Source: Girardia tigrina (taxonomy: Eukaryota). From it: a DNA stretch of 55,208 bases. The notes beneath the pieces are model-generated. The model was not told where the DNA came from. It did not search any database and worked only from the letters and a program-made list of their open reading frames with translations. Every line of letters begins with the position of its first letter. Position 1 is the first letter of the stretch. Below are positions 10,913-43,479 of this stretch, piece by piece. The DNA is taken from assembly GCA_001938485.1 (NCBI GenBank), contig MQRK01228686.1:62001-117208 (forward strand), given 5' to 3'. The position numbers and the translations under genes are program-made.

Positions 10913-12729
10913 TACTATGATAATTTAATAAAACATTATTATTTAAATCTGCCAAGGATGTTAACAAACTCTTTCTTCACGCATTACTTTACACCAAGGT
11001 CAGTCATCGACCCTTTATAACTTCATGAATCTAAAAAATCAAAATGGGTAATTAATAAATTTTAATTTAAAAACTAATTTCGAAAATCTGAAATCAAATG
11101 AATGAAAAAAATACTATGAAATCAAAAATGGAATTTATCAAATATTTTTAATAAATATATAAATATTATTTTTTTAATTAAATAAAATAAGAAAACTAGA
11201 AATAAAATAATTAACAAATTAAATTAATTAATATCAATTAAAAAATTTTAAAAAAAAATTATAAACAAAAAATAAATATAATAAATTCAACAAGAAAATT
11301 TAATTATAAAATAATTATTTATTTATTTGTATTAAAACTTTTGATTAAATTATTTTTTAAAAAAAATTTAATTATTTTCTCATTATTTATTTCATAGTTA
11401 TTTTTAATTAAAACGAATTTGTTTGTACGAAAGAAAAAAAATTAATTTAATTGTCTATTTTTATAAATTCCAAAATTATTATTCCCAAACATTCCAATGG
11501 AAATTTTTTATCATATTTAAAATAAAATAAATTTAAATAATTCAATTAACAATAATAAATGATTTGCGAAAATTGTTTTCAAAATCAAAAAAATCAATGA
11601 TAAATAAAAGAAAAATAAACAAATTTATTGAAATTTAATTACTTTTCAATTTTATTAATGATATAATTTTTTAATTAATAATTTATTCTTTACAAAAAAA
11701 GATTTTCTTAATTTTATTGTAATAAAATGTTTTTTTTAATTTTTCCAAATTCCAGACTTTTTTAAAAGGGTACAAAAAATCAATAATTTTTTTTTAAATT
11801 TTCAATTTGAAAAAAACAATTTTTTTCTCATTTCATGATTGAATAACAATAAAATTATAACTTCCCATTTATGTATTTTTACAAGTTGATAAAAGCCATT
11901 CCACTGGATTATTTCTGTCTTGAGAGACTTTCTACAAGACAATTAATATTTTTCCTTATTCAATAAAACTTTTTATCAGTGTCATTTTAAACAAAATTAA
12001 AAAATATTTTTTTTCATAAAACATTGAATTGAAAAAAAAATTTAGAAAAAATAAAATAGGATGAATTTATTTTTAATTTTAAAATAATTTAATTTTTATT
12101 TAATTATAATATTTATTTCAAGTATTATATAATATAATATTATTTTTTATATACTAAAGCAATAACTTATTCATTATTCATTATTAATGATCATTCGATA
12201 TTCGATTATTTCAACAAATTATCCAATTATTATTCAAGTAATATTTTGTAATTAAATATGTATTTCAATTTTCAATGGAATTAAAAATTTCAACAAAATT
12301 TTATAATTCATTCAAAATTTAATTTAAATTTTAAATTTTTTAATAATTTTTAAAATAAATAATTTTAAAATAACAGTAATTTATAATTTACGTATTTGGT
12401 TTAAAAAGAAGTACCACTATAAAATAACAGACAATAAGTTCCGAAACTATACTACGTAAATTCATGTGCATTCAGATACGTTAAATAGATTTATTAAAAA
12501 ATTTAAATTATAAATAATGAAAACTTATTTTTATTATAGATGAACTAATTTGATATTTTAAGAAAATCTAAATATTATTGTAAAATAATTTGAAGAAATC
12601 AAATAAAAAAGTTAAATAAAAAAATTTATTCACATTCAAAAATTTGTTCTCTCAGACATCTGCATTTAAATTCAAAAGAATTCGGATACTTAATAAAACT
12701 TAAATATCTTGATGGTAAATTAAAGCCCC

Positions 12730-14150
12730 AGTTTTGAATTTGTTGACTTTATTTCAAATTATAAGATTAGTAACAAAAATGAAATTATGGTTTCTTTTGA
12801 TGTGGTTAGTCTTTTCACCAATGTTCCTCTGAAGGAAACGATTAATTTATGTTGCATTCTTTGTAAAGATAATGTTGGTGAACACCATCTTATCGATGAA
12901 GTTGCATTTCGTGAATTGTTGTGTTTTGCCACTTCTAATATTCATTTTCTTTTTAATAATGAGTTGTATAAACAGGTTGATGGCGTAGCAATGGGTTTTC
13001 CCTTAGCTCCAACGCTGGCTTCAATATTTTTGTCAAGTATTGAAGATAAGATCAATTTGTTTCCGGTTCAAAAACCTCTAGCTTATAAACGCTATGTTGA
13101 TGACATTTTTCTTATTTTCAATAATCAAATTGACATAGATCCATTTTTAGGATAATTAAATTCTTTGCATCCAAATATTAAGTTTACAACAGAAACTGAG
13201 AATAATGGTAAATTATCTTTCCTAGACTTACTGATTGAAAGGAAAAGAGATGTTTATGAGACTGAGATTCACAGAAAGAAAACTGATACTGGGTTATATA
13301 CAACGCCAAACAATTTTTGTGAATCTCGATACAAATATAATATGATTAGAGGACTAATTTTTCGATCTTGGTCATTATCATCAACTTATACAAAAAGTTG
13401 TGATAGCATTAATCAATTAACTAAATTATTGAATAAAAATGGTTACTCAAAATCAATTGCTGAGAAATTGACCAAAGAAACAATTGATAAATTAATTAAT
13501 AAACCGATTAAAAATGACAAAGAAGACTCAACAAATTTAAAATACGTTTTAAGCACTCCATATTCAAAGGGATTTGGTCAATTTAAACGTTCAATTTTAA
13601 AATGCGTAAATAATGCCTTTAATTTAAAAATAATATCACAAACATAAAATCCAAAATGTATTTTGTAATAAATCTCCAATCCCATTTGGATTATGTTCGG
13701 ATCTCGTATATAAAATTACATGTAATGGGTGTAATGCCACATACATTGGAGAGACGTCCCGTCATCTTTGTAAGAGAATCCAAGAACATGGTCGGAATGT
13801 AGGTGGGAGTAATATTGTAGAACACAGAAATGGTTGTAAGTCGAATGAAAACATAAACATACATGATTTTAAAATTCTGTGTTCTCGTTTTAAAAACTAT
13901 TGGGAGAGGGTGGCCTGTGAAGCCCTTTATATCAGATCTTTAGATCCTAAGATTAATGTGCAAACGGGTCTCTCGAAAACCCTATTGAGCGTGTTTAGAT
14001 GACATAATAATCCATTGATGACATAATCACTGCTTGCCTATATAAGCAGATTTAAAATTGATCTTTTTTCTTGAGACCTGACGATGACGGTTATACCGTC
14101 GAAATTAATTGTCTTGAAAAATAAATGTCTATTTAACAAATAGCGTATTT
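12730..14150 (+). mobile_element. Penelope-like retroelement, 5'-truncated: RT plus GIY-YIG endonuclease plus 3' pseudo-LTR
   Basis: SFDVVSLFTNVP, YKQVDGVAMGFPLAP, YKRYVDDIF, HPNIKFT, LSFLDLLI; then VYKITCNGCNATYIGETSRHLCKRIQEH...EALYIRSLDPKIN, stop at 14000-14002; one internal stop and one frameshift. Confidence 0.95.
14071..14117 (+). ncRNA. minimal type I hammerhead ribozyme in Penelope pseudo-LTR
   Basis: Stem I UUGAGAC/GUCUUGA, core CUGACGA-U, stem II GACGG-uuaua-CCGUC, GAAA, palindromic AAUUAAUU stem III, predicted cleavage after AUU; TATA-like box about 30 nt upstream, AATAAA just downstream. Confidence 0.88.
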
Positions 14151-21966: not shown

Positions 21967-22814
21967 ATTATATATTTCCGTTAAAACACAAAACCACGAA
22001 ATTATTCCCTAATCTTGAAGGCCAAAAGCGACTCGGTGTTCTGTTGTCGCTCACGTTTTCCGTGTTGACAAATCGATAAAACTTGGTTTAAACAAAGAAA
22101 TTCTTTAAAATTAATTATACCAATTGCACGGATTGTAAAAGATGACTTTTTAAAATTGAATTTCGAGCGGTAAAATGATTTTCAACATAAAAACAAAACG
22201 CACTGCAGCAGAGTTAATCAGTGCGAGTGAATCGGTTTTATCGATTTTAACAAACAATTTGACGGATTTAAACAAATCTCTCATACATAAATTTCGTGAA
22301 ATATTAAAGTTTGTTTTATTAGAATTATTGCAAGATTTATCTATTGATAAAAAAGACAAATATAGATTAAAACAAAATTAAAATTATTTAAAGAAAAATA
22401 ATATAAATAAATAATAATATTAATAAATAAATAAGAAAAAAGTTAGTTGTAAAAAAATGTTTAAACGCGAAAACTTCTGAGACTTAAGAAAAAAAAGAGG
22501 AATAAAAATTTTTTTGGAACTTTTTCCTTTTAACCATCGGCAATGTCGTCTCCCAACTCCAAACAGTTGGATATCTTTTCTTTGCCTCCGGCTTAATTAG
22601 GTCCACCATTTACGGAAGACTAATTAATTAAGAATTAATTAAAATCACCGTTTTCATTAAAACAATTATTTAAAATTCACCTAATTTCGGTCAACACAGA
22701 GTGATTTTTGAAAAATAATACATTTTTAAAACAAATTTGTTTCAATATATAAATAAAAATTGTAATAAAATAATATTATTTTTTAAAAAATTTTATTGAA
22801 AAAAATCAATTTAA

Positions 22815-23048
22815 CTCTTCGTAACATGATGTGACACTTTTGTAACAAACCGTTGTAACTCATACGGGATCTCTAACTATTAACATATCACATTTTATAT
22901 AAAATTGTATATAAAATTTTATATTGTTGTATAGATCGGTGTGTAACAGATATGCAACAGTGATTTAAAATGTGATATGTTAATAGCTCGAGATCATGTA
23001 AGAGTTACAACGGTTTGTTACAGAAGTGTCGCACCATGTTACGAAGGG
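22815..23048. mobile_element. piggyBac-type fold-back MITE
   Basis: About 80-bp imperfect TIRs (CTCTTCGTAACATGATGTGACAC... / ...GTGTCGCACCATGTTACGAAGGG), TTAA on both sides. Confidence 0.88.
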
Positions 23049-23597
23049 TTAAAATATATGAGAAAGAAAAGATTTTTAAATGATTTTTCCGATCCAGCTA
23101 GATGAATTGCTTTTCGGAATTTGTAATCGTCGTTTTATAATTACTGATTAACCTAGAATTAGTATGGACAAGAGGAAGTCGACTGACTAATTAAAACAAA
23201 AAATTGCGGAAGGGAGTTTTCAGTCAAATTGATTTGTTCCAGAACGAAATTTTAATAAACCTTTGGTAAGAAGTACTAAAGATTGAGAATTCAAGCATCA
23301 TTGGAAAATATCAATCACATCAAAACAATAGGACTATATTCGAAGTTACTATATTAAATGGTTATTCAAGTATTCATTTTAAAATCCCCATGGATTAAAA
23401 ATCGTGTTAATTGAATTTCATCATTTGTATCTGATAAATAAATCAAAATAAAATAAATCAATCAAGACATTGAATTTCAATATCCCATTTGCCATATTAC
23501 TTATTATGCCCAACCTTTATTTTTAGTTTTTCCTGAATAGCTATGCAAAGCCAACAACGAAAGACTGTCACTCAAGAAATCAACAATTTAACCATTT

Positions 23598-25080
23598 CTA
23601 TGGTAACAAATGTCGAGTATAAAATAAAGAAATTGCAGTCTCTGGAGATTGACGGTAAAACCTTGAGCAAACTAATCAGGAAGATTGAAAAAAGGTTAAT
23701 GCTTTGCTAGTGCACTTTTGCCAGTGCTAGCGAGAAACGATCTAAAACATTCTGTCGGAGAAATAAAGTGCTTAGAATCAACTCAAGTAGCAATACGGTA
23801 ATTCAAAAATAAATCCGAGATGAATTTGAACAAGAAAGTAATATGAGAATTTCACAGCCAACCATTTCAAGAAAAATTTTAAAAATAAAATTCACTTGGA
23901 AAAGGCTTTCTTTGAATCCTTAAGAGCGTAATACACCAGTAGGATTGGATCAGAGAGCTTTGTTTGCTAACGAAATATCTCGTGTTCCAAATAGAAATCT
24001 GATATTCCTTTATGAAACTAATTTCAATCAACATACGAGAAGTTACGAGTATTCACTCGAAAGTCTATATTACCGTTCCTGGGAATAAAAATATTATCAA
24101 AAGCTTACTATATGCAATAGGTTAACCTGGCATGATCGGATATAATTACAGATCTGGATCTTTCAATTCAGATTACTTTATTGACTTTATTTTTAACGTC
24201 CTTGTGCCATTTTTTGAGCAAAATCCCAACTAGATACTTGTTAGGTTCATGATAATTCGCAGTTGAAGAGTCAGAATTGGAAAATTTTATGAACTTTAAT
24301 TTAATACAACAAAATAACATATTTTTAAACAAGTTTTTTTGAATAAATTTCCGAGGAACACTTCATTTTTTTTCTGGCACAAATCATAATGAATTTTAAA
24401 TCAAGATAAATAATTTAATATTTTATTTAATTTGAATTTTACAAATATTTTACTTCAAGCATTATTAATGTGGTTATTTTAAATTATTTATTTCAAATTA
24501 AAAACCTATTTTTAGTACAAGCATTATTAAAGTCTTACATTTTAAAATTTGTAATCAAACAATTTAATTACATATATTTCATTTCAAACTTATTAAGTTT
24601 ATTTTGATTTCCAAAAGTCTTTGTTATCATATTTAATTTACCATTTTTTCATTTAAATTATTTTATAATAAATCTCAATTTTTTTAAATTTAAAAATGTT
24701 TATTATTTTATTCTAATCGTAAAATTCTTATATTTACATTAATGATATATTTTTTTATGTTTTTGAAATTTCTTTTTTTAGATTTAATTCCAAAATCTAT
24801 AAGAGTTTCCAAAAATCCTCACAATACTTATGATGGATCACGCTAAGATCCATAAATCTGTTCGGGTTATAAGATTGTTACTATCAAAAAACTTTGCCCA
24901 TAAATTCCTTGTTCCTTATTCTTCACAAATTAATCCAATTGAGAATTTTTTTCTCAATGTTAAACACTCGTTTTAAATCTGCGAGAATACAAATGCCAGA
25001 ATCCTCAACCGAGGAATGTTTAGATGCGGTATTGGCCGAAAATAGTCATTTTGAGAGCAATGCAAAGGGTTCTTCGAGAA
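23598..25080 (+). mobile_element. degenerate IS630/Tc1-like transposase interrupted by a MITE
   Basis: ISQPTISRKI..KFTWKRLS, LIFLYETNFN (equivalent to FxDExGFN), GSFNSDYFIDFI, FLVPYSSQINPIENFFSMLN (equivalent to LPPYSPxLNPIE). Confidence 0.8.
24270..24820 (+). mobile_element. truncated MITE related to 29856-30547
   Basis: Shared blocks AATTTCyGAGGAACACTT and AGATTT(T)AATTC..AAAA..TA.AAGAGTTTCC in the same order as the 30-kb copy. Confidence 0.6.
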
Positions 25081-27085
25081 AGCCAAGCTTTTCTTTTTAA
25101 TGGTTAATAAATCCTAGATGATAGTATTTAATCAATGGAGATATAAAAATGAATAACCCTATACACAATAAAAACTTCAATGAAAAATATAATTATCATC
25201 ATTTGAAGTGGTCACATATTCTTCAAGTTATAAAAATGACGACGAAACGTTTAATTTCTTTTCAAATTTACTCCAAAAGGATCAAATACACTTTTTTCTT
25301 AAATGTCGGCAAAATCATAAGAAAAACATTGAATTATTATTTGTTTTAATGAAATGAAGAGTTTTATTTATTTATATTTATATTTTCATAAAATGATGTT
25401 ATCTATTTGTCTTTTTCTCTAATCATAATCAATGTCAATTTCACAGTCAAATCCAAAAATCATCAATGATGTCACAAATCCAAATATCACATTATTCATA
25501 TCGTATTATTATTCTTATTTTTTTTCTATTACATCCTCTGACAAATAAAGTAAACAAGACAAAAACAATTTTTTTTCATACCGACAAACACCAAAACACG
25601 AAAGAACACAAATTCTCATACTCAAAATTGTCAACCGAACAAAAGACGAACAAGACACAAAAACCAAAAAAAGTAGAAACAAATAAAGTTGAAAAAAATA
25701 CGGGGAAAAAAAAGAAATCTGTGTAAAAACCAAAGAGGCTTAGGTCGGCTAAGCAATTAATTCTGGAGCCAACTTCAAAGCGGCTCTATCTCCCAAAAGA
25801 AATCGACATCCTAATTGATTCTCAAGGCCAGATTGATTTATAAATTGCCATCAATAGCAAATAATATTTCGTGTTTTTAATCATTTTTCTACTAGAAGCA
25901 AATAGATTTTTTAATGTGATATTACCTGTACAGAAAAAAAACCCTCTCAATTCTGTGTCGTGCAGTAGATCGATTTAATAACAACCCGGGCGAATAATCC
26001 TTTGTACGCTGAATCTACAATTGTTTGATGAGGCAAAAAAATCAATTTGACCGCCTTTTTCTCTTTTTCTATTCTACAGCTTCCTTCCTTTTTTCAAGAA
26101 TTCAGTCAGCACAGTAGATAATATCTAGAAAGAGATGACGATGACAATAGTCTATCTAATTAAGAATTAATGAGTCGCGATAATCTACTATAGCGAAGCA
26201 AGTGTTTTAAGAAGATTAGTCAGTGGCTCAACTTCGTAGCGGAATGAAATCTATCCCTTGAAAAACAAGAAAATTAATTTTTTTTCAAAATCGAGACCCG
26301 GTTCAACAGCGAAAACAGAGAGTTAGAGTAGCGGATTTGGGGAATTGTCAAAGGGCTGGAAAGAAAACGGGAGGAGGTAAATTGATTTTGTGATTTCGTT
26401 CGGGTTAAGATCCCGATCAGAGTTTGAGATTTATCGGCACAATTATTAAAAGAAGGATTATGCAATTTGTATTTAATTAGTTTTTTTTTATTAACCCGAG
26501 TACAGGTGTAATGGGAAAAATGATGGAAAATATAATCAGATTCTCGTAATCAACTGGGCAGTTTTTTTTTATTCAATTTGATAAAATGTGTAATGCGGAA
26601 TTATTTATTTATTTTTTTTAATAATGACTGAAAGAAAGAGAAAAAAAGAAAACGATTGAAAGAAAAAAAAACTCAGAAAAATAAATATGTTGATGAAATT
26701 TAATATAACTGCGATTTTATTTTTTTTGTAATTATTTTTTTCTGATTAATTAAAAATTAATTTATTTTTGAAATCAAAGAAATTATTTTTTTAAATTAAT
26801 ATAAATTATTAATAATAAATTATTTTGAGGGAAAAAAATAAAATCGAAAAATAAATATGAATATGATTTTCAAAAGATAAGTTTTTTATAAATTGAAATT
26901 TTAAATATTAATTTTTTTGGAATTTTATATATTTTTTTAATATTTTTTTTGTAATATTTTTAGACCTTCTTGTCATAAAAACTCTGACTTTTATTCGCAA
27001 AAAACTTTTCAAAGTAATTTTCAAGAGTTGTCAAGAGACTTGAAAATATTTCCATGGAAAAAAGACAGGTCTACTTAATGAGGAC

Positions 27086-27230
27086 TGTGAGGAATATTTT
27101 ACATTGTATGGATCGTGTATGTTGATTTAAGTATGTTGAATTTAGAATGGTGATTCTCCCACCCAGATGGAAATTGGTATTTTTATATCTATTTTTAATA
27201 ATGATTATTCGAATAATTTCCTAAATCTTT
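27086..27230 (+). repeat. copy B of Mutator-like terminal repeat
   Basis: TGTGAGGAATATTT...CTCCCACCCAGATGG; the downstream TTTTTAATAATGATTATTCGAATAA block is also found at about 37793. Confidence 0.75.
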
Positions 27231-28048
27231 TTTAAAATATTTAATTTCAAAAAAGTTATTTATAAAAAAATTAATAATTTTAACTATTTCTTTATAAAAA
27301 ACTATTTTAAGGATTAGAGTTTAGGCTATATAAAAAGTTAGAGCTTAAATAGTGAGGGTTAGATGCTTATATATAAATTTAAATTTGTAAAACTTAAAAG
27401 AAATTAAATATCCCAGTGCTGAGTTTCCCCGGACCCGAGTCTTCATATTTATTGAATATATTGTTTTGGATGAGAAACAAGAATAAATAATTCTCTGTAA
27501 TATAGTCGTGGGACTACTTAAAATTATACAATTATCATACTTTAAAAAAATTTTAAAAAATGAATTCCAATTAATAAATCTAAAAATATTTATAAATTTT
27601 CTTTATAAAAAATTTTCAACCAAAAAGAACTTGTAAATAAATTCCATTTTAAATTTAATCAAATAATTAATACAAAAAAAACAAGTAAAAAAACGTAAAT
27701 TTTACAAATTTCTGAATTTTCTCAAAATTATTTTTTTTCATACAACAAAAAATTATTCGACAATTTTTTTTCCATTTCTTTTATATTGTTTTTTCTTTAT
27801 AATTCAATGAAGGGGCGATTGGAAAACACAAAATCAGTTTTTTTTGTCAAAATAACAAATTAATGAAAATTAAAAACCCGAACTTTATAGACTAAATTTA
27901 TTTAATAACTTTTATAAACTGGAGTATGTCTTCTAATCCTTGGTCAGTCTATTCCTCTTCTTTGCGTAGGAGCTCGAATTTCGATGTTACCACATTAACT
28001 GCAGTCAAAAGCAGGACATTATTTAGAATATGAACTAAAATAAAATAA

Positions 28049-28567
28049 TTATTCATAACTAGAAACGTAATGAGCAACTTCCCAATTTGTCTTCAGGATG
28101 TGAGGTCCAGTCAGTCGGACACCGTCTTTGTCGATCACTGCCATTTGGTACTTGAGACTGGCGCGACAGTCTTGATAATACAGCACTTTCAACGCATCGA
28201 TTATTTCGATTTTCGCGTCCTCCTCACACAAATTCTCACACTGATTAGCAACATCTCGTAGTTTTGGTATTGCCAAGAATTTACCATAGCCAGTAGCGCA
28301 AATCTTGTCTTCAAAAGACTCTCCTTTCATATCAGTGACAATGTAAGAATTTCATAAGGGATCCATTTTCGTTCGCCGATCATAAAGAACGCGAGTGATA
28401 AAACTGTGTAAACCATTCGAAGTCATTTCGAACCCGTCGCCTTCTAAACGATCATTGTGTACTTTCTCTTTAATAATACCGTGAAGATATTGAAAATCTG
28501 CGATATCCCCAGTAAAACCGAGAACGGTCGTATTGTTGATTTTCTGAATTCTTTCAATGTCACTAAA
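28049..28567 (-). pseudogene. PSMB4: proteasome subunit beta type-4 (beta7) intronless 5'-truncated pseudogene
   Basis: FSDIERIQKINNTTVLGFTGDIADFQYL...GDG...LHSFITRVLYDRRTKMDPL*NSYIV-TDMKGE...ATGYG..LAIPKLR...LKVLYYQDCRA...TNWEVAHYVSSYE; a conserved Trp became TGA (28352-28354); about 12 codons deleted; N-terminus missing. Confidence 0.92.
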
Positions 28568-28569
28568 TA

Positions 28570-28730
28570 CTTTTCAGCGGTGTACTCACCATGAACGAAT
28601 TTATTGACATTGAAACTGTTATGTGCAATTACAGAACATAAGTGAATACTAGTAATCTTATAGTTGATCCTTTCGAAGCTTTCACAAGTTTTTACGCACA
28701 AGTTAACTCGATATATATTGTCAACCAAAT
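28570..28730 (-). mobile_element. degenerate SWIM zinc-finger segment of a MULE transposase
   Basis: YRVNLCVKTCESFERINYKITSIHLCSVI...KFVHGEYTAEKY follows the MULE pattern V.L...TCxC......IPCxH...V......FV...YT.E.Y, with some Cys lost. Confidence 0.55.
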
Positions 28731-29855
28731 GAATTGATTTAGTTGACGCTTTTACCGTCAGTTTTGTAGCTTTTACTCGTAAATAAATTCTATTTAAAAT
28801 TTAATCAAATAATTAACAGAAAAATAAATAAGAAAAAATATAAATTTTACAAATTGTGGAAATTTCTAAAAAAATAATATTTTTTTTCTCATTGAAAAAA
28901 AATAATTCGACAATTTTTCTTCATTTTTTTTATTTTTTTTCTTGAAAACCATACTAAATATTATAATTAAAAACTTTTATTAAAATTTTTCAAATATGAG
29001 AAAAGCACATTTTTTATCAAAATTAATAATCAATTAAAATAGTTATTTTTTTAAAAACAATATCGAAAACATTTAAAATTATTTTTAAAAAATTCAAATA
29101 AATAAATATCAAAATCTTTAAGAATTTTTTTTCAAACCACACATAAAAACTCGTAAATAAATTCCATTAAAAAATTAATCAAATAATTAGCATAAAATAA
29201 ATAAGCAAAAAAACATAAATTTTTCGAAATTTCTCAAATAAAATGATAATAAAAAAATTATTTTCCTCTTTCTTTTATTTTTTTACTCTTCTTGAAAATC
29301 ACACTAGAACCGACAATTCGGTTAAAATATCATTGTTAAATAATTAAATAATTTTTTTTCTCAAAAGAATCATCACTTTCCTTAATTAAAGTGACCGTTA
29401 ATAGTTTCCAAAAAAATCTTCCTTGGTCATTTCCTTCCATTAGCAGTATCAAAGCAATTATCGTGTTCAGTTTTCCGTTTGGTATTGTTCAAATCCACGC
29501 TGGGATATTTGATGGCCACAATAGCCGGCAACAAAAGATGATGATTTATTTAATGTTCTTCCGGCTACATACCGATATGGGATATTATTTGTTGTTTATC
29601 AATGGTCGGCTGTGAGAAAACATGACATCAATCATGCGTGAAAGACTGGAAACAATTATTCATTGTTAACTAATAATTAAAGGTTTGAGATTAATAATAA
29701 CTAAGTTTTTTTTATAATGTCTAATCGATTCTGAGTTTGGAGATTTTATAATTGCAAAAGAAAAATGGGAAAAAAATTAGTAAGAATTTCGACGAAATCT
29801 CTCGACTGGCATGTTTCCAAGTCGAGAGAGTTTTGAATCGGTTTTATGATTTTGA

Positions 29856-30547
29856 CACTAGAACTACCTATTTCTACCAAACAAACTTGTTAGTTTAGTG
29901 GGTGTATTCTGATGAAATTTCAGAAGACATTTTTGAAACTTTTAACAATATAACATAATATTTAAATCAGTTTTGTTTAATTAAATTTCTGAGGAACACT
30001 TTTTTCGTTTTTCTTGTATAAACCAATAATACCAAAATAAATTGTATCTATAAATATATTTTAATCAACTTATATCCTGTCGGTAATGATTATGTAATCA
30101 ATACGTCATCAATAAATCATTTCAAAACCCTCAATAAAGTTGTCGAGAGTGCAAAAATGAATGATTTATTGATGACATATTTTAATTAAATGTCAATTTT
30201 ATCATTTTTTGAAATCTTTAATATTGTATTTTTTTTAAACTATAATACGTTATTGAAACCTTTTTTAAAAATTTTTTATATCTTTTTAAATCACTTCGTA
30301 CTTATTTTTGTATTTTAAAAAATTTATATTAATTTGTAAAAAGTTGTTTAATTAGATTTTAATTCTAAAACTTAGAAGAGTTTCCCGAAATTCGCTCTAA
30401 ACATTTATTATAAAAATGGAATTTTAGAATCAAAATAATTCAGGATGTTATTAAATACATAAAATTAGAAAAAATCATAAAATTTAAATAGGAATCTTGC
30501 GAAAAATTGATACCAGCGGCCATTTTGACCGGTTGGTGGTTCTATTT
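29856..30547. mobile_element. piggyBac-type MITE (CACTAGAAC termini)
   Basis: TTGA|CACTAGAACTACC ... GGTGGTTCTATTT|TTAA; subterminal GGCCATTTTGACC; internal 17-bp inverted repeat at 30105-30176. Confidence 0.6.
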
Positions 30548-31250
30548 TTAAGGAGAAAAAGATGACAATTAGACGTAATCAAACCCGAGAAAGGGCGTGT
30601 CAATGTTTTGCTTTTTGATAATGATGTCAACTAAAATATCTTGTTTGTTTGTTTTAATGCGTCCATAAAGACTTTGATTAAACAAATTTTCTTTGATAAA
30701 TGACGCTCAGCGTCAATTATCAGTCATTTTGCTTATGGTATTAGACAATAAAACCTTGTAAAAATCAGTTGGTTTCAGTTCAACAAAACGTATGATTAAA
30801 TTAATACGTTTACGTTTTAACGTTTTTCTTTAATCAATAGCATTTGAAATGGTCCGATGGTTATTGAAGATTTTTCTCACAGAGATTACTTATTTTTTAT
30901 AACAAAAGTTTTGTTTTTTATTTATCTTTTATTTACGTTTTAGTCAAATGAAGAAAACTAAGTTTTAAATTAAAATAATTTGTTGATTTGTTTTTAATTT
31001 TTATTAAAAATGGAATGAAGATGTTAAATGTTAACGTGTCACAATGTTGTAACATGTGAACGTTTATGGGTGGAAGGGCGCATCCACGTCGTTTGACTTA
31101 ACATTTTCATGATTTTAAAATGAGAAAAATTATTTTAAATAAACATTTTTTGCTATACAATTTATTTTTCAAATTAGACATTTTTCTATAAATTATAAAT
31201 TTAATAAATTTGTTTAAATATTAAATAAAAATCTATATTATTGTAAATCC

Positions 31251-31850
31251 ATGAAAGATCAACCAACAGAACAAACTCAAAATAGCCGCGCAAATAAATA
31301 CAGTAGCGTGTCTAAAGAGAAAAGGTCTTTAGTCCTATCAGGCTAGTTGAAGGTCTTAGGCATTCGATTAAAGAAGCATCATCAATTTTGGAGATAAATG
31401 CAAGCACTGCTCGAAATATCGTAAGGGAGAAACGAACCAAAAATCGAGTATTAAAGAAAAATGCTGGAGGTGTACGTAGAGTTGCTATGAATCCTGAGAT
31501 TTTATTGAAAATCGAAGAATTATTATCTGAAAATAATTTAACGACTTTAAAAGAGCTACAATTAAAAATTACTCAATCATTTAATACAAAAATTTCTTTA
31601 TCTACAATCAACAAAGGAATTAGTGATATTGGGATTACAAGGAAGGTAGGATACAAAGAACTTTATAGGGTAAATGCTGCCAGAAGCATTGCTCTTAGAA
31701 GAGAATGCGCTTTGTGGTTTAATAACTACTTTGAATCTAACTTTTCAAAGATGTATTGTATTGACTCATCTTCTTTTAATCTTCATATGCTACGTTAATA
31801 TGGGAGATCCAAAAAAGGATCCAGAGTTATTGTTTTATACAAGCTTCTAG
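31251..31850 (+). mobile_element. IS630/Tc1-like transposase N-terminal half, degenerate
   Basis: INASTARNIV...GGVR, TTLKELQ..ISLSTINK..IGITRK, YCIDSSSFNLHMLR*YGRSKKG (first catalytic D region). Confidence 0.85.
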
Positions 31851-32446
31851 TCCCATAAATAAAGTTATAAGGATAAGAAAAGATAAGAGTTAATATAGAA
31901 CACAAAATAAGAGTTTATCAAAATACATAATTATATTACTCTTAATAACACTAGTCTTTTCAAAGTTAAAAATTTTCCTATACGAAGTTATCTTACAAGT
32001 GAACCTAATCCATGTCCATTGACATTTCCCCTTGGTTGTTGAGTTTTAAACAGAAGAAGCGCAAAAATTATTGCTACAAAAAAAGAAGACGAATTCGAAA
32101 GAGATCTCCTCTAAAGAAGTAATAACTGAATCCAATAATCTTCTTGATCCATTCATTTTCTTCATTTTACAACTGCGAAGAGAATGTTTGTTTTCTACAA
32201 ATTGTTTATATTTAATTAGATTTATAAAATAAATATTATGAGTGATTAATGAGAATGGTTTACAAATAGTAATTATAATAATCAAAATCTGCTCCGTAAA
32301 GGCTGTATGAAGTACCGAAATACTGTCAGACAGAAAAAATATAATTATTTTATAATATAATAATCGTACAACATAATACTTCAGTAAATTGATTGTTTTT
32401 TTGTCTGCTCAAATTTTCAATTGATTACCGCAACTTATTTCATGAA

Positions 32447-32890
32447 TGTGAGGAATATTTGAATGTTTGATGTTTTGTGTTTGAATGTGTATGTTGATTT
32501 GGAATTGTGTCTCTCCTACCCAGATGGATGATTAATATTTTAATTATTATTATCTGAAAATATGTAATGTTTAAATTTATTTCTATTTCAAATTAATTGT
32601 AAAATTTTAAATAACTTTATTAAATTTTATTTACAAATTTTAAGTAAATAAATTGAATTAAAAATCTTAATAATAATAATTAATAATCATTTTTATTTTT
32701 AACAAATAAAATTTTGAATAAATATTTTAACAATTTATTTAATTCTCCATTTGCTTAAATAATAAGATTAAAGTCATTAATCAATCAATTAGAATGCAAT
32801 CGTACGAAAGCATTGACAAAGATTGTCTTGAGGACAATCAAATTTGTTATGTTAATAAAAATATTAAAAGTCAAATTGGTGATCTTAATA
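32447..32890 (+). mobile_element. copy C of Mutator-like terminal repeat plus start of ORF
   Basis: TGTGAGGAATATTT...CTCCTACCCAGATGG; ATG at 32794 gives MQSYESIDKD...VNKNIKSQI, homologous to the ORF start after copy D. Confidence 0.6.
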
Positions 32891-33824
32891 ATGAAGTGAT
32901 ATTAAAAATAACAATAATAATAGTAATTATTATTATTATTGTTGCTTAACAAAGATAACCGACAATTAATTTTCAAATATTCAAAAATTTATGAATTCGC
33001 CAAATCCTAACAACATCATTACTATTCCAAGAAGCACCCTCCCGAGATTAAGTTGTCGCCGGTAATAACTGATAATATAATGATTGTGGTTTTCTGTTTA
33101 CCAAAGAAAATGTTTCCTTTGGATTTAAAATAATCTGAAAAACAATTTCCGTCGGAGTTTCATGGAGATTAATTTGTCGATAACTGTTAAAATGAAATAT
33201 TGTGCGATTTGGGAGAGAATTAGCTCTAATCTTAGACGTCAATTAAAGAGTTAGATTAGTTTCCAAATATATTGGAAATATCGTTTTAAGGAATGATTAA
33301 TCTAAACAATAATTGAAAACCCTAAAATTAAATATTAAGAAAAACTATATAAAGTTAATTTAAAATCTGATCCGTTCAGATAAAACATATTTTATCGTAG
33401 GCAAAACGTACATAAATCGAAAAGTCATTTTGGTTTATGGAAGCTTTTCTTTGGAATCCTATAGTTTCTAGGCACTAAGATGACTGAAAAGATTAGAAGA
33501 CAAACTTTATTCATATTTTATTCTTCAAGGGGATATGAAGATCAAAAGCACAATCAAATAAACCATAATCAAAAATTTGATCATTTATGGGGAGGATTCT
33601 GATAAGCATCTGAGAGATCCAGTAGAGGTATCCTTTATACAGCCTGACGGTTTAATACTAATTTTAGTATATATTTAATAAAATTTAAGTATATTAATGA
33701 CCATATTAGTTATTTCAATAATTCTTCTATTAATAATTTCGTTATCTTATAAAGAAGTTTAACATTTTATACAAAACATTGTTTCAAAATTCGATTAATT
33801 TTTTTGAAAAAACGTTTTGTACCA

Positions 33825-35850
33825 GGGAGGGAAAAATCAGAATGTTGTAAGTTTGTTGTTTGTATGCTGTTTAGATTGGTGACTCTCCTACTCAGATGGG
33901 ATTGATATGTTATTGATTAATTATTTAAATCTGACAAATTAATTTAAGGAAATTAATGTTTAAATACTAATTAATTAAAAGTTTTATAATTATAAATTTT
34001 AATAATATTTTTAGTTAACTAATTTATTGAATTTAACTTATTGAATTTAATATATTTTAAAAACTAATGTTTATTTTAAAAATTACTTAATGCATTTTTA
34101 TCCAATAAAATTTTGAGAAATTAAAAGTTAATATAATTCTAATTTCATTAATTAATTTAAAGATTCAAATATAGCTACAAACACATATTAACCAAGAATG
34201 ACGCTTCCCGCAGAAATTGATACTGAAAATGTTCGTGTTGTTAATAAATGTTTACACTCAAATTGAGATGTTACTAATAGAACCTTTCGAAAATATTTGT
34301 AGGATTTTATTCATCTAGTTATACAACTTTTTTGGACAAATAGTTGAAGAATCTGAAATAAGAAAAGGTTACAAATAAGTTATATCTGTCGTTTGTTGGG
34401 ATCTATACAGGGTGCGGCAGCTATTTGAGAACAAAATGACATAAAGTTCAAAAAATGAATATACAACAGAAAAATAACTTTTATTACAATTTAAAATTTT
34501 ACATATATTAACACGTACATAAAGNNNNNNNNNNNNNNNNNNNNNNNNNNNNNNNNNNNNNNNNNNNNNNNNNNNNNNNNNNNNNNNNNNNNNNNNNNNN
34601 NNNNNNNNNNNNNNNNNNNNNNNNNNNNNNNNNNNNNNNNNNNNNNNNNNNNNNNNNNNNNNNNNNNNNNNNNNNNNNNNNNNNNNNNNNNNNNNNNNNN
34701 NNNNNNNNNNNNNNNNNNNNNNNNNNNNNNNNNNNNNNNNNNNNNNNNNNNNNNNNNNNNNNNNNNNNNNNNNNNNNNNNNNNNNNNNNNNNNNNNNNNN
34801 NNNNNNNNNNNNNNNNNNNNNNNNNNNNNNNNNNNNNNNNNNNNNNNNNNNNNNNNNNNNNNNNNNNNNNNNNNNNNNNNNNNNNNNNNNNNNNNNNNNN
34901 NNNNNNNNNNNNNNNNNNNNNNNNNNNNNNNNNNNNNNNNNNNNNNNNNNNNNNNNNNNNNNNNNNNNNNNNNNNNNNNNNNNNNNNNNNNNNNNNNNNN
35001 NNNNNNNNNNNNNNNNNNNNNNNNNNNNNNNNNNNNNNNNNNNNNNNNNNNNNNNNNNNNNNNNNNNNNNNNNNNNNNNNNNNNNNNNNNNNNNNNNNNN
35101 NNNNNNNNNNNNNNNNNNNNNNNNNNNNNNNNNNNNNNNNNNNNNNNNNNNNNNNNNNNNNNNNNNNNNNNNNNNNNNNNNNNNNNNNNNNNNNNNNNNN
35201 NNNNNNNNNNNNNNNNNNNNNNNNNNNNNNNNNNNNNNNNNNNNNNNNNNNNNNNNNNNNNNNNNNNNNNNNNNNNNNNNNNNNNNNNNNNNNNNNNNNN
35301 NNNNNNNNNNNNNNNNNNNNNNNNNNNNNNNNNNNNNNNNNNNNNNNNNNNNNNNNNNNNNNNNNNNNNNNNNNNNNNNNNNNNNNNNNNNNNNNNNNNN
35401 NNNNNNNNNNNNNNNNNNNNNNNNNNNNNNNNNNNNNNNNNNNNNNNNNNNNNNNNNNNNNNNNNNNNNNNNNNNNNNNNNNNNNNNNNNNAAGAGTAGC
35501 TTCTGCCATGTCTACCAGCAAAAATAAAATTATGTAATTATAACACACAAAAAGATATGGTGTCTATATTACGTGTTCTCAAATAGCTGCCGCACCCTGT
35601 ATATTATTTTCGCACTTTTGTCAAATGATGTTCTAGTTGACCCCTTGAGATCGTATATGAAGGTCACTCGCTTGAAAGATGCTTATTGCACGTGTCTGCC
35701 TTGTCATATGAGCCTCTTATTTTGTCGCCAACAAAATTTTTGTCGTCATTATTTTATTGAATATTTATTTTATTTATATCATGACCTTAGGAGTCGTCAA
35801 TTACTTTGCCAATGAAAGTTCGGAACATTAATAATATTTGGATGTGAAAG
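33825..35850 (+). mobile_element. copy D Mutator-like element 5' end with degenerate N-terminal zinc-finger-like ORF, split by a Tc1/mariner insertion
   Basis: CTCCTACTCAGATGG core; ATG at 34198 MTLPAEIDTENVRVVNK..., later SYICRLLGS, resuming after 35601 with RLKDAYCTCLPCHM...IEY..YHDL. Confidence 0.45.
34408..35599 (-). mobile_element. young Tc1/mariner element, interior in assembly gap (N 34525-35491)
   Basis: Perfect TIR CAGGGTGCGGCAGCTATTTGAGAACA at both ends, TA TSD; minus-strand ATG (MAEATL) runs into the gap. Confidence 0.9.
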
Positions 35851-36303
35851 AAAATCAAGATAGATAATTTTCGCGAATCATCTAAATTGATTCTTTTACA
35901 TAAATCAATCGTACATCTATCATGTATATCGTTTAACTAATTTAAGAGTATTGACCAAAACTTATATTGTCGACGTAGAGTTTTCGTTTCTCTTAAATCA
36001 CCTAAAGTACTTAGGTCAAATGACCTCATTCAAAAAATTGGAGCCAAACTTATTTTAAGATATTTTGTTTTTGGATCTTCATTTATATACATATTTTAGG
36101 TTCATACATATTTAAATGTTTCAAGTCACACTAAGTACAATAAATAATTTAAAATAGAAAAAAGTTCAAATAAAGAGTCATATGTATATGCAAATAGTAA
36201 CTTACAAAAGTATTTTCGTATTTCATCCCATTTTATTCTTTAAAGTTGTATCTGTTATTTATTATTTTTCTAGTTAAAATCAAAAACTGGTTTGGGTGGG
36301 TGA

Positions 36304-36612
36304 GCTAATATTGTTCATCATTTTGATGTCACGGATGTCAGAATTCGTACATTGGAGAGACACACCGTCATCCCCATACTCGGTTTAATGAGCACACATC
36401 ATCTAAACGGGCTAGTAAGGTCTGTAAGCATTGGAAGTCGTATTAAAATAAGGAATCAGCTGATATAGAGAATGCATTCTCAATTCTGATTTCGAAATTT
36501 GATACGCAATTTGAAAGGCACTTTTGCGAGTCATTATTGATCAGACATCGCAACCATTTTATAAACATTCAAAAAGGAAATAGTAAAGCTGTCACAATGT
36601 GAATATTTTCTT
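36304..36612 (+). mobile_element. Penelope GIY-YIG endonuclease fragment 1
   Basis: ANIVHHF*CHGCQNSYIGETHRHPHTRFNEH...ERHFCESLLIRHRNHFINIQKG (not in the ORF track because of stops). Confidence 0.85.
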
Positions 36613-36760
36613 TGTATATTGTGATAAATTAATCAAGTTTGAATTTGAGTCTATAATTATATATATATATATATGTGTGTGTGTTTTCTAGTCTGGTAAA
36701 CAATAGATTGATAATATTCGAATAAATATTTGATAAAGCGATTTTTAAAAATTTTTTAAT

Positions 36761-36800
36761 ATAGAACAGGTTTCGATCAGCTTTGATCATCATCAGCTAT
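36761..36800 (-). ncRNA. minimal type I hammerhead ribozyme in an inverted Penelope pseudo-LTR
   Basis: Minus strand AUAG-CUGAUGA-U-GAUCA-aagc-UGAUC-GAAA-CCUGUU-CUAU; ATTAAA immediately downstream; TATA-like sequence about 40 nt upstream. Confidence 0.82.
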
Positions 36801-36879
36801 CCATTAGTGTTTGATTTAATTGGTTAAAATATAATCTATAAAATATCGACAATGTTAGAATAGTTCAGTAACATCTAAA

Positions 36880-37235
36880 GTGACAGATTTCCTTACAGTG
36901 AAATCGAGAAATAACTGTGCATTGAAAGCTAATCTTGTACATAAATTTATGTGTCACGGGTGTCGCAACTCGATCATTGGAGAGACAAATCGTCATCTCA
37001 AAACACGTATTAGTGAACATTCACAGCCAAGTCGATCGAGTAAGTTTTGGGATTATTATGTTTGTTGCAAGAATAGAACCTCTTCCATCTCAAAATATGA
37101 TTTTTCTATTCTTCAAACCAAATTGATTCACATTATGACAGGTTATATTGTGAATCCATGTTAATCAGGCACTATAACCCATTGATTAACATCCAAAAGG
37201 GAAAGTGCAGGACAACGACAATATTAAATATTTAA
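36880..37235 (+). mobile_element. Penelope GIY-YIG endonuclease fragment 2
   Basis: ANLVHKFMCHGCRNSIIGETNRHLKTRISEH...(frameshift) CESMLIRHYNPLINIQKG. Confidence 0.85.
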
Positions 37236-37777: not shown

Positions 37778-38176
37778 AGTGTTATTTCTGAATTTTTAAT
37801 AATGATTATTCGAATAAATTTCCTAATTTTTCAATAACATTTATTATTATTTTAACTTTAAAATATTTTATAAAATTATAATAAATAATTAAACTAATTT
37901 AAAAATTATTTAAAACTCTAAAATGTCTTTAATTAAAACTTAAACAAGTTTTTTTTTCATTTTTGAAAATAGATTAATTAAAAATTACTCTATTACTTAA
38001 ATTTAAATTTTGTCGGATTATTAAATTTTCATTAATTTAAAAATGTAAATTCAGTTCGAAATATCAGTTGTCGTAAATACAATAAATCACTAATTTTCCA
38101 ACTGGGTGGGCGATTCAAATTTCAGCACTCTCAAATAAACACACCACATACATACACAATATAAATATTCCTCACA
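37778..38176 (-). mobile_element. short non-autonomous Mutator-like copy (terminal repeat copy E, inverted)
   Basis: Reverse complement TGTGAGGAATATTT...CGCCCACCCAGTTGG at 38098-38176; subterminal block of copy B at about 37793. Confidence 0.65.
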
Positions 38177-39244: not shown

Positions 39245-40390
39245 TCCACGATCGGTTCTAATCTTTATTTGTTTCTGTGAAACCTTATCGTACTTTCCCA
39301 TTTTCTTATGATAATAGTGCTAACATTTTGGTTTCGTTTTTTCGTTTCACGATTCTGGTCTCACAGGGTCAAGTTGTTCTGCTGCACTTCATTCGGTTTC
39401 GCATCACTGTACCAGTCAAAAAGCGGGGTACAAATCTGAAGAACAGTTTTTTGATAACCGCAGATTTCAATTTGGCGTGAGCTATACCAACATTGATGTT
39501 TGCCTTCGTTGACAGCATTTTCATGGTAATTTGACGCTCTTCTCAGACCATCTTCTCCAATTTTTCATCAACTGTGTCAAAAATTTACTTAGGTTTTCTG
39601 ATTTTTCTTGATCAAAAATGGAATTGTGACAACCCTTAAAACTCTTTGATTCAATATTTAACACTTGTCACATATACTGAGTCATATAAGTAAATTAAAT
39701 GCAACAGATCGTAGATTTCACTGTCTTCTTCTGCAACACAAAGAACTTGATAACGCTACAGTAATCGACATCTGAAATCATAGTTCTAACCTAAAGGGTA
39801 ACTAGTAGAAAAACAAAGGCTTACAAAAATGCACCGAAGTTCTTCCTCTGTTTTTCGCTCATATGACTGAAAGTCAGTTTAACACTGTGTGTAATAAACT
39901 GAAGAATATTGATGTGCCCGCTGCCCAAATACGTAAGAAAGGAATAGGTAGAAAACAAAAACTTCACTCCAGTTAAACAAACCGTGCTCAGAATAACAGT
40001 CACTCCAGAAAACAGTCCTCGATGTTGGCACAGCAGTCATAGGACAAATTGCACCTACATTGCATATTTCAAAGAATCAAAATTCAATATTTTAAAGAAA
40101 AGTCGCTTGAAATGTTACTGCAAAATCAAATGTCCTAAACTGACGGAATGTCGAAAGTGTTGCAACAATGATGAAGGACATTTTGAAAAGTCTGAACAGC
40201 AAGCTTATTTATGTAAATATAATTCTTTGCTTTTATTCCGTGTTTAATGAAATACATTTTGGTTTTATAAAATCCTTTGGTTTTCTACTGGGTTAGTTTA
40301 CTCTGTTTATTAATTTATTTAATCACACAAAAAATCAAATTTGCTATTAAATTTTTTACCTTAGTTCGAGTACTTATTGAACGCACCACG
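39245..40390 (-). mobile_element. mariner 5' half, same family as 6013-7187, with a ~470-bp foreign insert
   Basis: Shared GAACAGTTTT.TGATAACCG, TTTTCATCAACTGTGTCAAAA and AAAGAACTTGATAA; TIR TTAGTTCGAGTACTTATTGAACGCACCACG|TA. Confidence 0.8.
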
Positions 40391-41419
40391 TATGTCTTAC
40401 TATTGATACCCAATCGTTCGAGTGAACACCAAAAGATGGATCCTCCGGTAATGTCTAAAAAGAGAGGAACACAGAAGAAAGTACCAAAATTAATAAAGAA
40501 ATATAAATATAGAATTTTCATTTTAATATAGATACGAATAAGGATCTCTAATTTCCCCTAAAATAAGATTTAAATTGAAACCACAATTAATTTTTATTTC
40601 CCGAAATGTACTTTCTTCTTCGCTTGCCGAACAAACTCTTTCATTCTTCCTTCGACAATCGACATTCAGCGGGGCAATGGCATTTGGGAAATTTGCACTT
40701 TTAAATGTTTGTTTTAATGGGAGAAATTAATTTTTTTGTAATTTACTCTTTACAAGTTGTTAATTTTTGTTTGTCAATTTGTTTTAATCAACAACATTTA
40801 CTTTTTATAGAATTTTCTTACTCTTTTTTCTTTTGTTTTTTAATGGTTTCTATTGTATCGGTAATGTGGGAAAGATTACTTTCTATCAATCATTCCTCTT
40901 TGGACTTTTTCTTTCCAGCAACTGAAATTCGTTAATTAATTATGTACGATATTTTAATTAATTATTACCGACAACGGAACAAATGTTTATTGTTGATTAT
41001 TTTATATTTACGACAACGGGGATTTTTATTTTTAAATATTTATACATAAATCTTGAAAATAATTTTTAATACAATGGAACGATTGTTCAATTACAACAAT
41101 TCTTTGTAGACTTTCTGGTGCTATTCTCTTTCTTATTCTTATTAATATTATTATTATTATTAATATTGTTGTAGGAGATAAAAATATTGCCGTGGAATTC
41201 TTTTTTTATTAATTGTAAATTAAAATAATTAGAATACAAAATCATGACGAATTGTTGTAAAAATAATTATTTTTTTGGGCAGAGGAAAATTCGATTTAAA
41301 TAAATATTTTATTATTATTATTGAAGAAAGTTAATTAATTTTTATAAATTTATTTTTGAAATTTTATATTTAATTGACTTAATTTTATTTGATTGTTTTG
41401 ATTAGTGATTGAATTCATA

Positions 41420-41728
41420 TGAGTCTCTCTTTTTCCCGATCATGTGGATCATAGTGTTGAGGCTTGTTAGGTCAGGCGTGTTTGTCAGGCAGTTGTCAAT
41501 GTGGTTGAATGTTGACTTGTGGGTCGCATCGTACATACGTGTCACGGCCTGGAAAAGCTCTTGTCCCATGATGTGCAAGATCTGCAATTTAATCTTCTCA
41601 AAGTTGATCTCAATGATCCTCTTGTCGAAATCCACACAGATCAAGTGTGGACAATCCACCATAAAGTTCTTTTGATGAGCTGGTGCAGTAAGCAGTTCTT
41701 GTCGATGATCATTTAACCGAAAACATAA
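41420..41728 (-). pseudogene. RAB14: Rab14 small GTPase intronless pseudogene fragment
   Basis: KNCLLHQL..(frameshift)FMVDCPHLICVDFDKRIIEINFEKIKLQI..GQELFQAVTR-MYDATHKSTFNHIDNCLT..LTSLNTMIHMIGKKRD matches recalled Rab14 [32 protein letters not shown]; P-loop partly deleted and about 11 codons deleted. Confidence 0.9.
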
Positions 41729-42204
41729 GAATAATATTAATTCTGACTTTCACAAACATAGATCAAATGGTACGCGTTAAATCAAAGATCTTCCTGTGTA
41801 TTTCGATATACTATACAACTGTCATTCCTTAAAAGTAATTCTTTCTTGGATTTAATACGATCCAATTCAATTTACTGCTTAAATAGGAATTCAAGCAGAT
41901 TTTTTTGTTTTTCGATTGTAAAAGTCCAAACATTCTCTCAGAAAATTTCGAACAGTTAAAAGTTTGAATTTGTGAACCACCAATTTGAAGCAACTCATGA
42001 TCGAGCCACACTGAAAATTCGATATTTGAAGAACATATGGATTGTTGATCAACAAAATTTTGAAAATTAAAATGTAATAAAAACGAGTAGGCCTATTCTC
42101 CAAGATTAGGAATAATGCTATTAATATCATTTATGCCTCTTTCAGAAAATTCTGATTAAGATTTTTCGTAGATATTTAACATTGGATTATTTATGAAAAA
42201 TATA

Positions 42205-43193
42205 TTAGGTTGATAGAAAAATAATGGTGGTTTTTGAGCTTTATACTTTGTTTATCTACTTTGATATGTATATAAGTTTAAATGCATTAGTGTTAGATAT
42301 TATTTTAAATCTTATGCCTAGCTGTATATTCCTATAGCCATTATTAANNNNNNNNNNNNNNNNNNNNNNNNNNNNNNNNNNNNNNNNNNNNNNNNNNNNN
42401 NNNNNNNNNNNNNNNNNNNNNNNNNNNNNNNNNNNNNNNNNNNNNNNNNNNNNNNNNNNNNNNNNNNNNNNNNNNNNNNNNNNNNNNNNNNNNNNNNNNN
42501 NNNNNNNNNNNNNNNNNNNNNNNNNNNNNNNNNNNNNNNNNNNNNNNNNNNNNNNNNNNNNNNNNNNNNNNNNNNNNNNNNNNNNNNNNNNNNNNNNNNN
42601 NNNNNNNNNNNNNNNNNNNNNNNNNNNNNNNNNNNNNNNNNNNNNNNNNNNNNNNNNNNNNNNNNNNNNNNNNNNNNNNNNNNNNNNNNNNNNNNNNNNN
42701 NNNNNNNNNNNNNNNNNNNNNNNNNNNNNNNNNNNNNNNNNNNNNNNNNNNNNNNNNNNNNNNNAAAAATTGAAAACCCTTTGTCCGGGATTGGTCAATC
42801 GAAAAAGTCCCATCCTTCTTCATGATAACGCTAGACCTCATATTTCAAAAGTGACTCTTCAAAAGTTTAATGAGTTGGGCTATAAAACCCTGCTTCATCC
42901 ACCATATTCAACAGACCTCTCGCCAACGGACTTCTACTTTTTCAGGCATTTGTACAACTTCCTACGTGAAAAAATTTTCAAAAACCAAATGATGCTCAAA
43001 ATGCCTTCCAAGAATTCGTCGCTTCGAGAACCGATGCATTTTATGCTGATGGAATNNNNNNNNTTGTTTCTCGTTGGCAAAAATGTATTGATGCCAACGG
43101 TTCATACTTTGATTAATAAACTTTTGTTTCTGTGAATTTGCACGTCTTTGAAGTTTGTGTCCAAAAACCGCCATTATTTTTCGACCAACCTAA
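42205..43193 (+). mobile_element. mariner element (cecropia/Hsmar1-like) with both TIRs; gap 42348-42764
   Basis: TA|TTAGGTTGATAGAAAAATAATGG ... CCATTATTTTTCGACCAACCTAA|TA; LLHDNARPH, HPPYSTDLSPTDFYFFRHL, RWQKCIDANGSYFD. Confidence 0.95.
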
Positions 43194-43479
43194 TACTATA
43201 ATCGTTCCATAATTTGACACTAATAAAAATTTGACTTCTATTAAACCATTTTTCGTGTGAATGGTTTCTGGTATTTCTTTAACGATTCAATTTAAATTCT
43301 ACTCCTTGTAGGCTAAATTTATCGAAAATTTTTACAGCAATTTTTTTAAAGTTTGAATTGGTTAATTTCTTTAAAAAAGCCAATATACACTATGAGGGGT
43401 TAATTTAAATTTTCATCTCACCAGAATTATTTATTATATTTTTAAAAGGTAAAATATTTTAATGTTAATATGCTTATTC

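Follow-up and report, generated by a model that had tools for sequence, protein, structure and literature searches.

Our results suggest that a 527-bp fragment of the host gene PSMB4 (proteasome beta-7) was captured by gap filling within a MULE that was already dead, most likely during the repair of a DNA break. We consider this history probable, if well short of certain. The locus is best read as a genuine repair accident of a type already described, and not as a mobile element that carries genes. What it offers is an example, resolved to the base, of a piece of host coding sequence that was copied into the transposase gene of a dead animal MULE. The first-pass annotation had already seen a MULE remnant with host-gene sequence inside, and this part holds: the host sequence aligns with PSMB4, and the MULE remnant can be identified by its SWIM finger.

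The window (the whole stretch of 55,208 nucleotides that was analysed) is a gapped, AT-rich eukaryote scaffold with a GC content of mostly 15-40%. It holds four N gaps and is full of transposon remnants; a lenient self-BLAST produced chiefly AT-rich noise. Information about copies comes from public contigs of four runs (X1 to X4), aligned to positions 26700-30300 at a cut-off of at least 80% identity. X1 and X2 belong to the same study (share of sampled words 0.68 and 0.44, respectively) and X1 is possibly the source of the assembly. X3 is RNA by its guessed label but looks like DNA, since an interspersed repeat of the window (repeat B, see below) reaches a depth of 56,778 there, versus 7-41 for near-identical X3 contigs of PSMB4. 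X4 covers both MULE flanks and leaves 28273-28514 uncovered; at a depth of 2-3 this gap is uninformative and was left uncounted. Deep X3 and X4 matches near 28140-28186 continue into GC-rich sequence and were taken as PSMB4 of another organism.

The PSMB4 insert occupies positions 28042-28568 on the minus strand. From 28561 to 28052 it aligns with residues 39-219 of mature human PSMB4 (E 1.5e-38). The match to yeast is far weaker (E about 1e-19), which agrees with the earlier view that the host is an animal. The insert is 5'-truncated: what remains is the last two thirds of the coding region and a short piece past the stop. The natural stop codon lies at 28051-28049 and the insert ends 7 nt beyond it. 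Both ends were set by contigs. At 28568 one contig each from X1 (record 6) and X3 (record 20) quits matching and then continues; at 28042 the match of another X3 contig (record 17) quits, and that contig continues for 275 nt. No poly(A) is found in the last 20 bases of the insert, 7 of which are A.

The copy in the window is damaged. It contains one in-frame stop (TGA at 28354-28352) and, compared to human PSMB4, a gap of 12 residues that corresponds to a 36-bp in-frame deletion near 28335. The deletion is filled in contigs with depths of 830 (X1) and of 482 and 128 (X2), where 33 additional letters stand between 28335 and 28333 for a net gain of 36 bp. Translated by hand, the filled-in 36 bp restore the missing residues, including KPFLGY, as in mollusc homologs. 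Since these contigs keep the 36 bp, the PSMB4 copy in the window is a derived pseudogene. It is 96-99% identical to the X3 PSMB4 contigs (three records), and a diverged extra copy (88%) is also present among the contigs. A homolog search with the fragment retained 10 of 25 candidates, the best at 37-44% identity and none of them close. The sequenced bases of the window hold no second PSMB4 piece and no parent gene. Hence, the bias for nearby templates that is typical of gap filling finds no support here.

Contigs of the intact type of PSMB4 reach depths of 830 in X1 and 610 in X2, which is 2.7-3.3 times (X1) and 4.6-7.2 times (X2) the depth of the locus. Candidate explanations for the excess are that PSMB4 exists at more than one locus, that its locus is polymorphic or that GC bias inflates the depth; the ratio is unlike in the two samples. 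One X1 contig of depth 1011 extends without a break from about 28132 to 28286 or beyond and alone accounts for the depth at 28169-28209. The contig of depth 830 crosses 28335 and adds only the 36 coding bases. Among the contigs listed, intact-type PSMB4 thus appears to lack introns between about 28132 and 28286 and at 28335. The absence of introns in the insert therefore does not imply retroposition.

Directly adjoining the insert, on the same strand and without a spacer, lies the remnant of a MULE SWIM finger (28569-28775, minus strand), as had been described earlier. The remnant has lost two cysteines. In the ESM Atlas its top matches score 0.95, 28 of the 30 matches belong to the same family set, SWIM is found in 14-53% of cluster members, and the recognition value is 2710. 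Other copies carry the lost letters: S33 of the window is a cysteine there, T42 a proline and S43 a cysteine (3 of at least 13 differences in the SWIM stretch, among those listed). Together they restore C-x-C...P-C-x-H, which we take to be the SWIM finger pattern. By its sequence, then, the remnant is one decayed member of a SWIM-bearing repeat. The HMM search that had been proposed as a check came out blank with Pfam, which matches neither SWIM nor MULE on the decayed copy; the SWIM identity itself is upheld by the ESM Atlas and by the letters of the other copies. Protein searches gave no valid match either. A word search with the 73-aa SWIM piece against longer proteins scored none of 17 candidates, and the sole phmmer match among 1.84 billion representatives was a tandem-repeat protein, which we rejected as an artefact of summed repeats. 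Hence, no intact transposase of the family was recovered.

A stop-free frame crosses the junction between SWIM and PSMB4 (28444-28800, minus strand). It is one base out of register with PSMB4, as the earlier description of an out-of-frame reading frame had it. We do not regard it as a gene: no ATG lies upstream, and the only one sits 3 codons ahead of the stop.

Beyond PSMB4, from 28041 down to about 27810, what we infer to be MULE-like repeated sequence resumes. The part at 27900-28041 (minus strand) appears to be a coding remnant that followed the SWIM finger and has since acquired stop codons, and 27810-27899 (minus strand) is the probable 3' non-coding end of the MULE. When 28042-28568 is excised, the SWIM finger runs into the far side in one unbroken frame, with zero bases lost or duplicated. 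Frame continuity by itself has a chance of 1 in 3; the ends of the insert came from contigs and are independent of the frame test. The far-side frame contains four stops in 47 codons (the neighbouring frame contains one), and Pfam is blank on it. It includes a proline- and arginine-rich stretch, presumably like the one that follows SWIM in MULE transposases. The bin 27910-28030 has a depth of 669 in X1 and 326 in X2, which is 2.7 and 2.5 times that of the respective junction contig. X4 contigs match 27900-28041 with 84-88% identity, and a related X3 contig (record 16) aligns to 27819-27934 and then diverges. With MULE-like, repeated sequence on both of its sides, the PSMB4 fragment appears to be an insertion into the element, which goes beyond the anatomy described earlier.

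The G-rich start at 27812 may be one surviving terminus of the MULE. An inverted partner of 27806-27850 is not found in the window, and neither is a TIR pair of the MULE. On the other side the MULE is cut off at 28775, where the alignment of an X4 family contig (record 26) ends, so that there is no second end with which a TSD of the element could be tested. No Pfam match to a DDE domain, no TIR pair and no 8-11 bp TSD came out of the analysis, and the element is therefore not assignable to a MULE group.

At the 5' junction, between SWIM and PSMB4, the two sequences share an identical run of 4 nt; runs of at least 4 occur in a fraction of 0.02 of random pairs of MULE and PSMB4 positions. The run at the 3' junction is 1 nt. 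TATTT flanks the insert on both sides and may be a short (5-bp) TSD; four of the five letters of the copy on the 5' side also match the PSMB4 contigs. The 3' junction is spanned without a difference by an X1 contig (record 5, 27883-28074, depth 252). The corresponding X2 contig (record 12) extends 29 letters into PSMB4, just short of the bridging threshold of 31. Among the matches listed, no contig bridges the 5' junction, and none joins the MULE flanks without PSMB4 as an empty site would. The depth on the SWIM side, at 28624, is 249 in X1 and 146 in X2. Next to both junctions the depths are 249-252 (X1) and 131-146 (X2), versus 830 and 610 for intact-type PSMB4. Most of the intact-type copies are hence not joined to SWIM or MULE flanks, and, as far as summed contig depth can serve as a rough guide, not being a copy number, the chimera looks like one locus. 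The diverged contigs from X1 and X3 that depart from the window sequence at 28568 do not enter SWIM. Beside the locus there is an indel polymorphism, a segment of 106 bp (27359-27464) that an X1 contig set of depth 82 and an X2 set of depth 52 both lack.

The surroundings of the chimera consist largely of repeats. Three copies of an AT-rich local repeat of about 160 bp had been noted, and they stand up to a shuffle control: the pairs score 106-181, whereas 300 shuffles of each pair never scored above 53. Copy 1 (27541-27808, core 27629-27794) matches copy 2 at 81% identity along 173 nt and copy 3 at 77% along 177 nt. Copy 2 (28775-28990, core 28775-28943) begins exactly where the MULE homology is cut, and copy 3 (29072-29378, core 29072-29237) follows 374 bp after copy 2. 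The join between the SWIM remnant and copy 2 is bridged by an X1 contig (record 7, 28582-28835, 0 differences) and by an X2 contig (record 13). The simplest history is that the MULE inserted in a short AT-rich array and then lost its 5' part.

Repeat B, which had been described as a Mutator-like terminal repeat, turns out to be a separate interspersed repeat of very high copy number without a tie to the MULE. It is made up of a core of roughly 100 bp (27086-27184, plus strand, with a 5'-TGT start at 27086) followed by AT-rich sequence. At least four aligned copies, 72-73% alike, are present in the window (27086-27184, 32447-32530, about 33826-33900 and, on the minus strand, 38095-38176); a further one possibly lies at about 625-690 (by eye only). 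Its depth is 2.1 million in X1 and 1.9 million in X2, versus 121-284 in adjacent sequence (279 and 121 at 27305-27425), or about 8,000-15,000 times the depth of the locus. Contigs from elsewhere than this locus contain head-to-tail joints of repeat B. None of the three inward-facing pairs that were tested is surrounded by a TSD, the repeat B pattern has no match in metagenome contigs and Rfam has none over 26500-34500. Extreme depth, the lack of a partner and the lack of a TSD led us to reject repeat B as a TIR of the MULE. A second high-copy repeat occurs at 29846-30411 and 24308-24834 (62% alike over 536 columns), with a depth of up to 247,000 in X1 at 30088-30208.

The GC-richer block at 29390-29660 had been called exon-like. 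This is not borne out. Its depth is that of a single locus (294-317 in X1, 85-93 in X2), hence it has no parent at 80% identity or more among the aligned contigs. Pfam finds no family below E 0.05 in the block and no MULE match in the six frames of 29368-29722, and the recognition value in the ESM Atlas is 1046 against a threshold of 2300. On these grounds we rejected the block as a second host cargo. By eye only, its interrupted minus-strand frames look like the catalytic core of a MULE.

Elsewhere the window contains a second scrap of a host gene, 13 kb from the locus: an uninterrupted Rab14-like fragment (41402-41749, minus strand; E 5e-21 to human RAB14; Pfam Ras) with a gap of 11 residues and a cut 3' end. 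Mariner-like transposase remnants come in pairs (763-1338, 42782-43195, 6716-7024 and 39422-39753), and remnants of Penelope-like reverse transcriptase and endonuclease are found at 12724-14002, 36303-37164 and 50026-50124; both labels were given by eye. There is also a fragment of a Tc1/IS630-like transposase of 160 aa (31316-31798, with a weak HTH_32 match). Two short MITE-like elements have long inverted arms (22810-23053, 91 nt at 89%; 2985-3222, 43 nt at 88%). Perfect inverted repeats of 30 bp (34404-34433 and 35574-35603) around an N gap of 967 bases probably mark a young, unassembled element.

How could a proteasome gene fragment have ended up in the middle of a transposase gene? We propose that a SWIM-type MULE would have inserted in or beside the short AT-rich tandem repeat and then decayed. 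Later, a DNA break may have occurred within the transposase gene, just past the SWIM finger. The broken end could have annealed at a short AT-rich microhomology, and 527 bp would have been copied from a PSMB4 gene before repair rejoined the MULE with essentially no MULE sequence lost. At some time the 5' part of the MULE, including one terminus, would have been lost at 28775. The chimera would thereby have become unable to transpose, an inert fossil at a single locus. The sequence of these events, the use of DNA and not cDNA as template, and the lack of function are our inferences. That the capture came after the decay is suggested by the identities: the insert is 96-99% identical to PSMB4 contigs, versus 83-84% between the MULE parts and three family contigs, although these three are labelled as other organisms and could be old paralogues. 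DNA-templated repair is favoured because the insert lacks poly(A) and because its end lies within sequence that continues after the stop. Repair or template switching had been put forward earlier as the route, and the microhomology, the missing poly(A) and the rejoined frame support it as likely.

An unlikely alternative is that a reverse transcriptase of the non-LTR or Penelope type made a cDNA fragment of PSMB4, with priming at a microhomology and not at poly(A), and that this fragment inserted into the dead MULE. Such an insertion would account for an insert that is 5'-truncated and has no intron, for the 4 nt of microhomology at the 5' end, and for TATTT on both sides if this is a 5-bp TSD. 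The window also contains a Penelope-like reverse transcriptase remnant (12724-14002) and, with the Rab14-like sequence, another uninterrupted gene fragment. However, there is no poly(A), the insert quits 7 nt past the stop whereas the X3 contig goes on for 275 nt, the sense strand is rich in T at the 3' junction, and the intact-type DNA contigs likewise have no introns where they could be followed. The first-pass annotation had set an ordinary retrocopy in a dead MULE against its own view; the junction does appear to be single-copy as such a retrocopy would have it, but poly(A) and an unambiguous LINE-type TSD are absent. An assembly error that fused PSMB4 and MULE at common AT-rich words is extremely improbable. 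The scaffold is a gapped draft and the 5' junction is unbridged among the matches listed, but an X1 contig spans the 3' junction without a mismatch and an X2 contig comes close to doing so, the insert carries its own deletion allele, and the flanks rejoin in frame.

The annotation's own view was that of a damaged copy of a mobile, multicopy Pack-MULE with PSMB4 and other cargo, which we consider improbable. Host sequence does appear to sit inside a MULE, intact-type PSMB4 exceeds the locus depth in both X1 and X2 with at least one diverged extra copy, and animal Pack-MULEs are on record. Against this, the sequence beside either junction is no deeper than one locus, the 36 bp missing here are retained in the PSMB4 copies of greater depth, and the diverged contigs leave the window sequence at 28568 and not into SWIM. 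A Pack-MULE bounded by repeat B with several cargoes fails further because repeat B is unpaired, neither a TIR pair nor a TSD was found and the second block has no parent. Still less probable, in our view, is that the whole MULE-PSMB4 piece (about 27810-28775) was made elsewhere and copied between the AT-rich direct repeats by template switching. Copies 1 and 2 do flank the piece, and the MULE homology does quit exactly at the start of copy 2. Yet a donor copy should lift the depth at the junctions, where there is no such rise, and insertion of a MULE into the array followed by one deletion yields the identical picture. We therefore keep to gap filling in a dead MULE as the preferred explanation.

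The copy is broken and probably immobile. The process that we propose is itself known, and animal Pack-MULEs have been reported in Drosophila and in a preprint on a myxozoan. A single broken copy settles no open question alone; many captures or multicopy chimeras, if true, would matter. There is a slim chance that this genome amplifies fragments of housekeeping genes via DNA transposons at a plant-like scale, that the locus is a decayed member or by-product of this activity, and that a number of SWIM-cargo chimeras can still move or are transcribed. This reading derives from the 3- to 7-fold depth of PSMB4, the difference between the samples, the diverged copy and the Rab14-like fragment 13 kb away. 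If true, it would describe an animal Pack-MULE system that captures cargo inside the transposase gene itself.

Processed pseudogenes (retrocopies) are intronless, 5'-truncated and decayed copies of housekeeping genes. The insert is unlike them in that it lacks poly(A) and a clear TSD, ends 7 nt past the stop and has a parent type that looks intronless over the stretches covered by contigs. Turmoil-1 of C. elegans is reportedly a further element for comparison. Our literature search, which was non-exhaustive, found no title describing this SWIM-PSMB4 locus. The SWIM finger in the transposase is a feature that the locus has in common with many MULE groups, including the animal Curupira, MuDR-4_Sm and some Phantom elements, as described by Dupeyron et al. 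(2019, PMC6446971). For the myxozoan Sphaerospora molnari, Pack-MULEs with 99 genes have been reported (bioRxiv 10.64898/2026.02.11.705288), and as at our locus fragments of housekeeping genes are found in MULEs of an animal genome. Those elements were called from TIR spans, and the word proteasome is absent from the main text of the preprint.

In Drosophila melanogaster, Ssk-FB4 is described as a multicopy Pack-MULE (Tan et al. 2021, PMC8277862): its TIRs are long, it occupies three loci that each have a different TSD of 9-10 bp, and the gene that it holds is nearly complete and yields a protein. It shares with our locus an animal MULE-type element with host coding sequence. Long TIRs, several loci with TSDs, a near-whole gene and a protein are features of Ssk-FB4 none of which is demonstrated at our locus: no partner for 27806-27850 is present in the window, the MULE is cut at 28775, an 8-11 bp TSD is missing from all three repeat B pairs, and the depth beside the junctions, a rough guide only, does not indicate a multicopy chimera.

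The closest comparison is with the 370 animal Pack-TIRs that Tan et al. (2021, PMC8277862) report from 100 reference genomes. Nearly all of these are single-copy, and they are attributed to gap filling inside degenerate elements with microhomology of 1-36 bp (median 2), a range that includes the 4 nt and 1 nt seen here. The carriers are hAT and TcMariner elements in 323 of the 370 and a Pack-MULE in none of those from reference genomes, so that, going by this survey, a MULE is an uncommon carrier. A Pack-TIR, as defined there, contains 100-5000 bp of internal sequence that comes from the host and is at least 90% identical to its parent, and it has both termini of the transposon. The cargo of our locus, 527 bp of PSMB4 at 96-99% identity to X3 contigs, falls within these limits, and the carrier has the SWIM zinc finger of a MULE transposase. 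In contrast to those Pack-TIRs, there is at most one terminus, the carrier is a MULE transposase gene and no parent is seen nearby. Hence, the locus behaves like a single-copy Pack-TIR, yet it fails on the two termini and the TSD and is not classed as a Pack-MULE. What it appears to share with the single-copy Pack-TIRs of Tan et al. (PMC8277862) is a few hundred base pairs of host sequence at an internal breakpoint of a degenerate DNA transposon, little or no loss of transposon sequence, short microhomology, a single copy and a capture that followed the insertion of the element.
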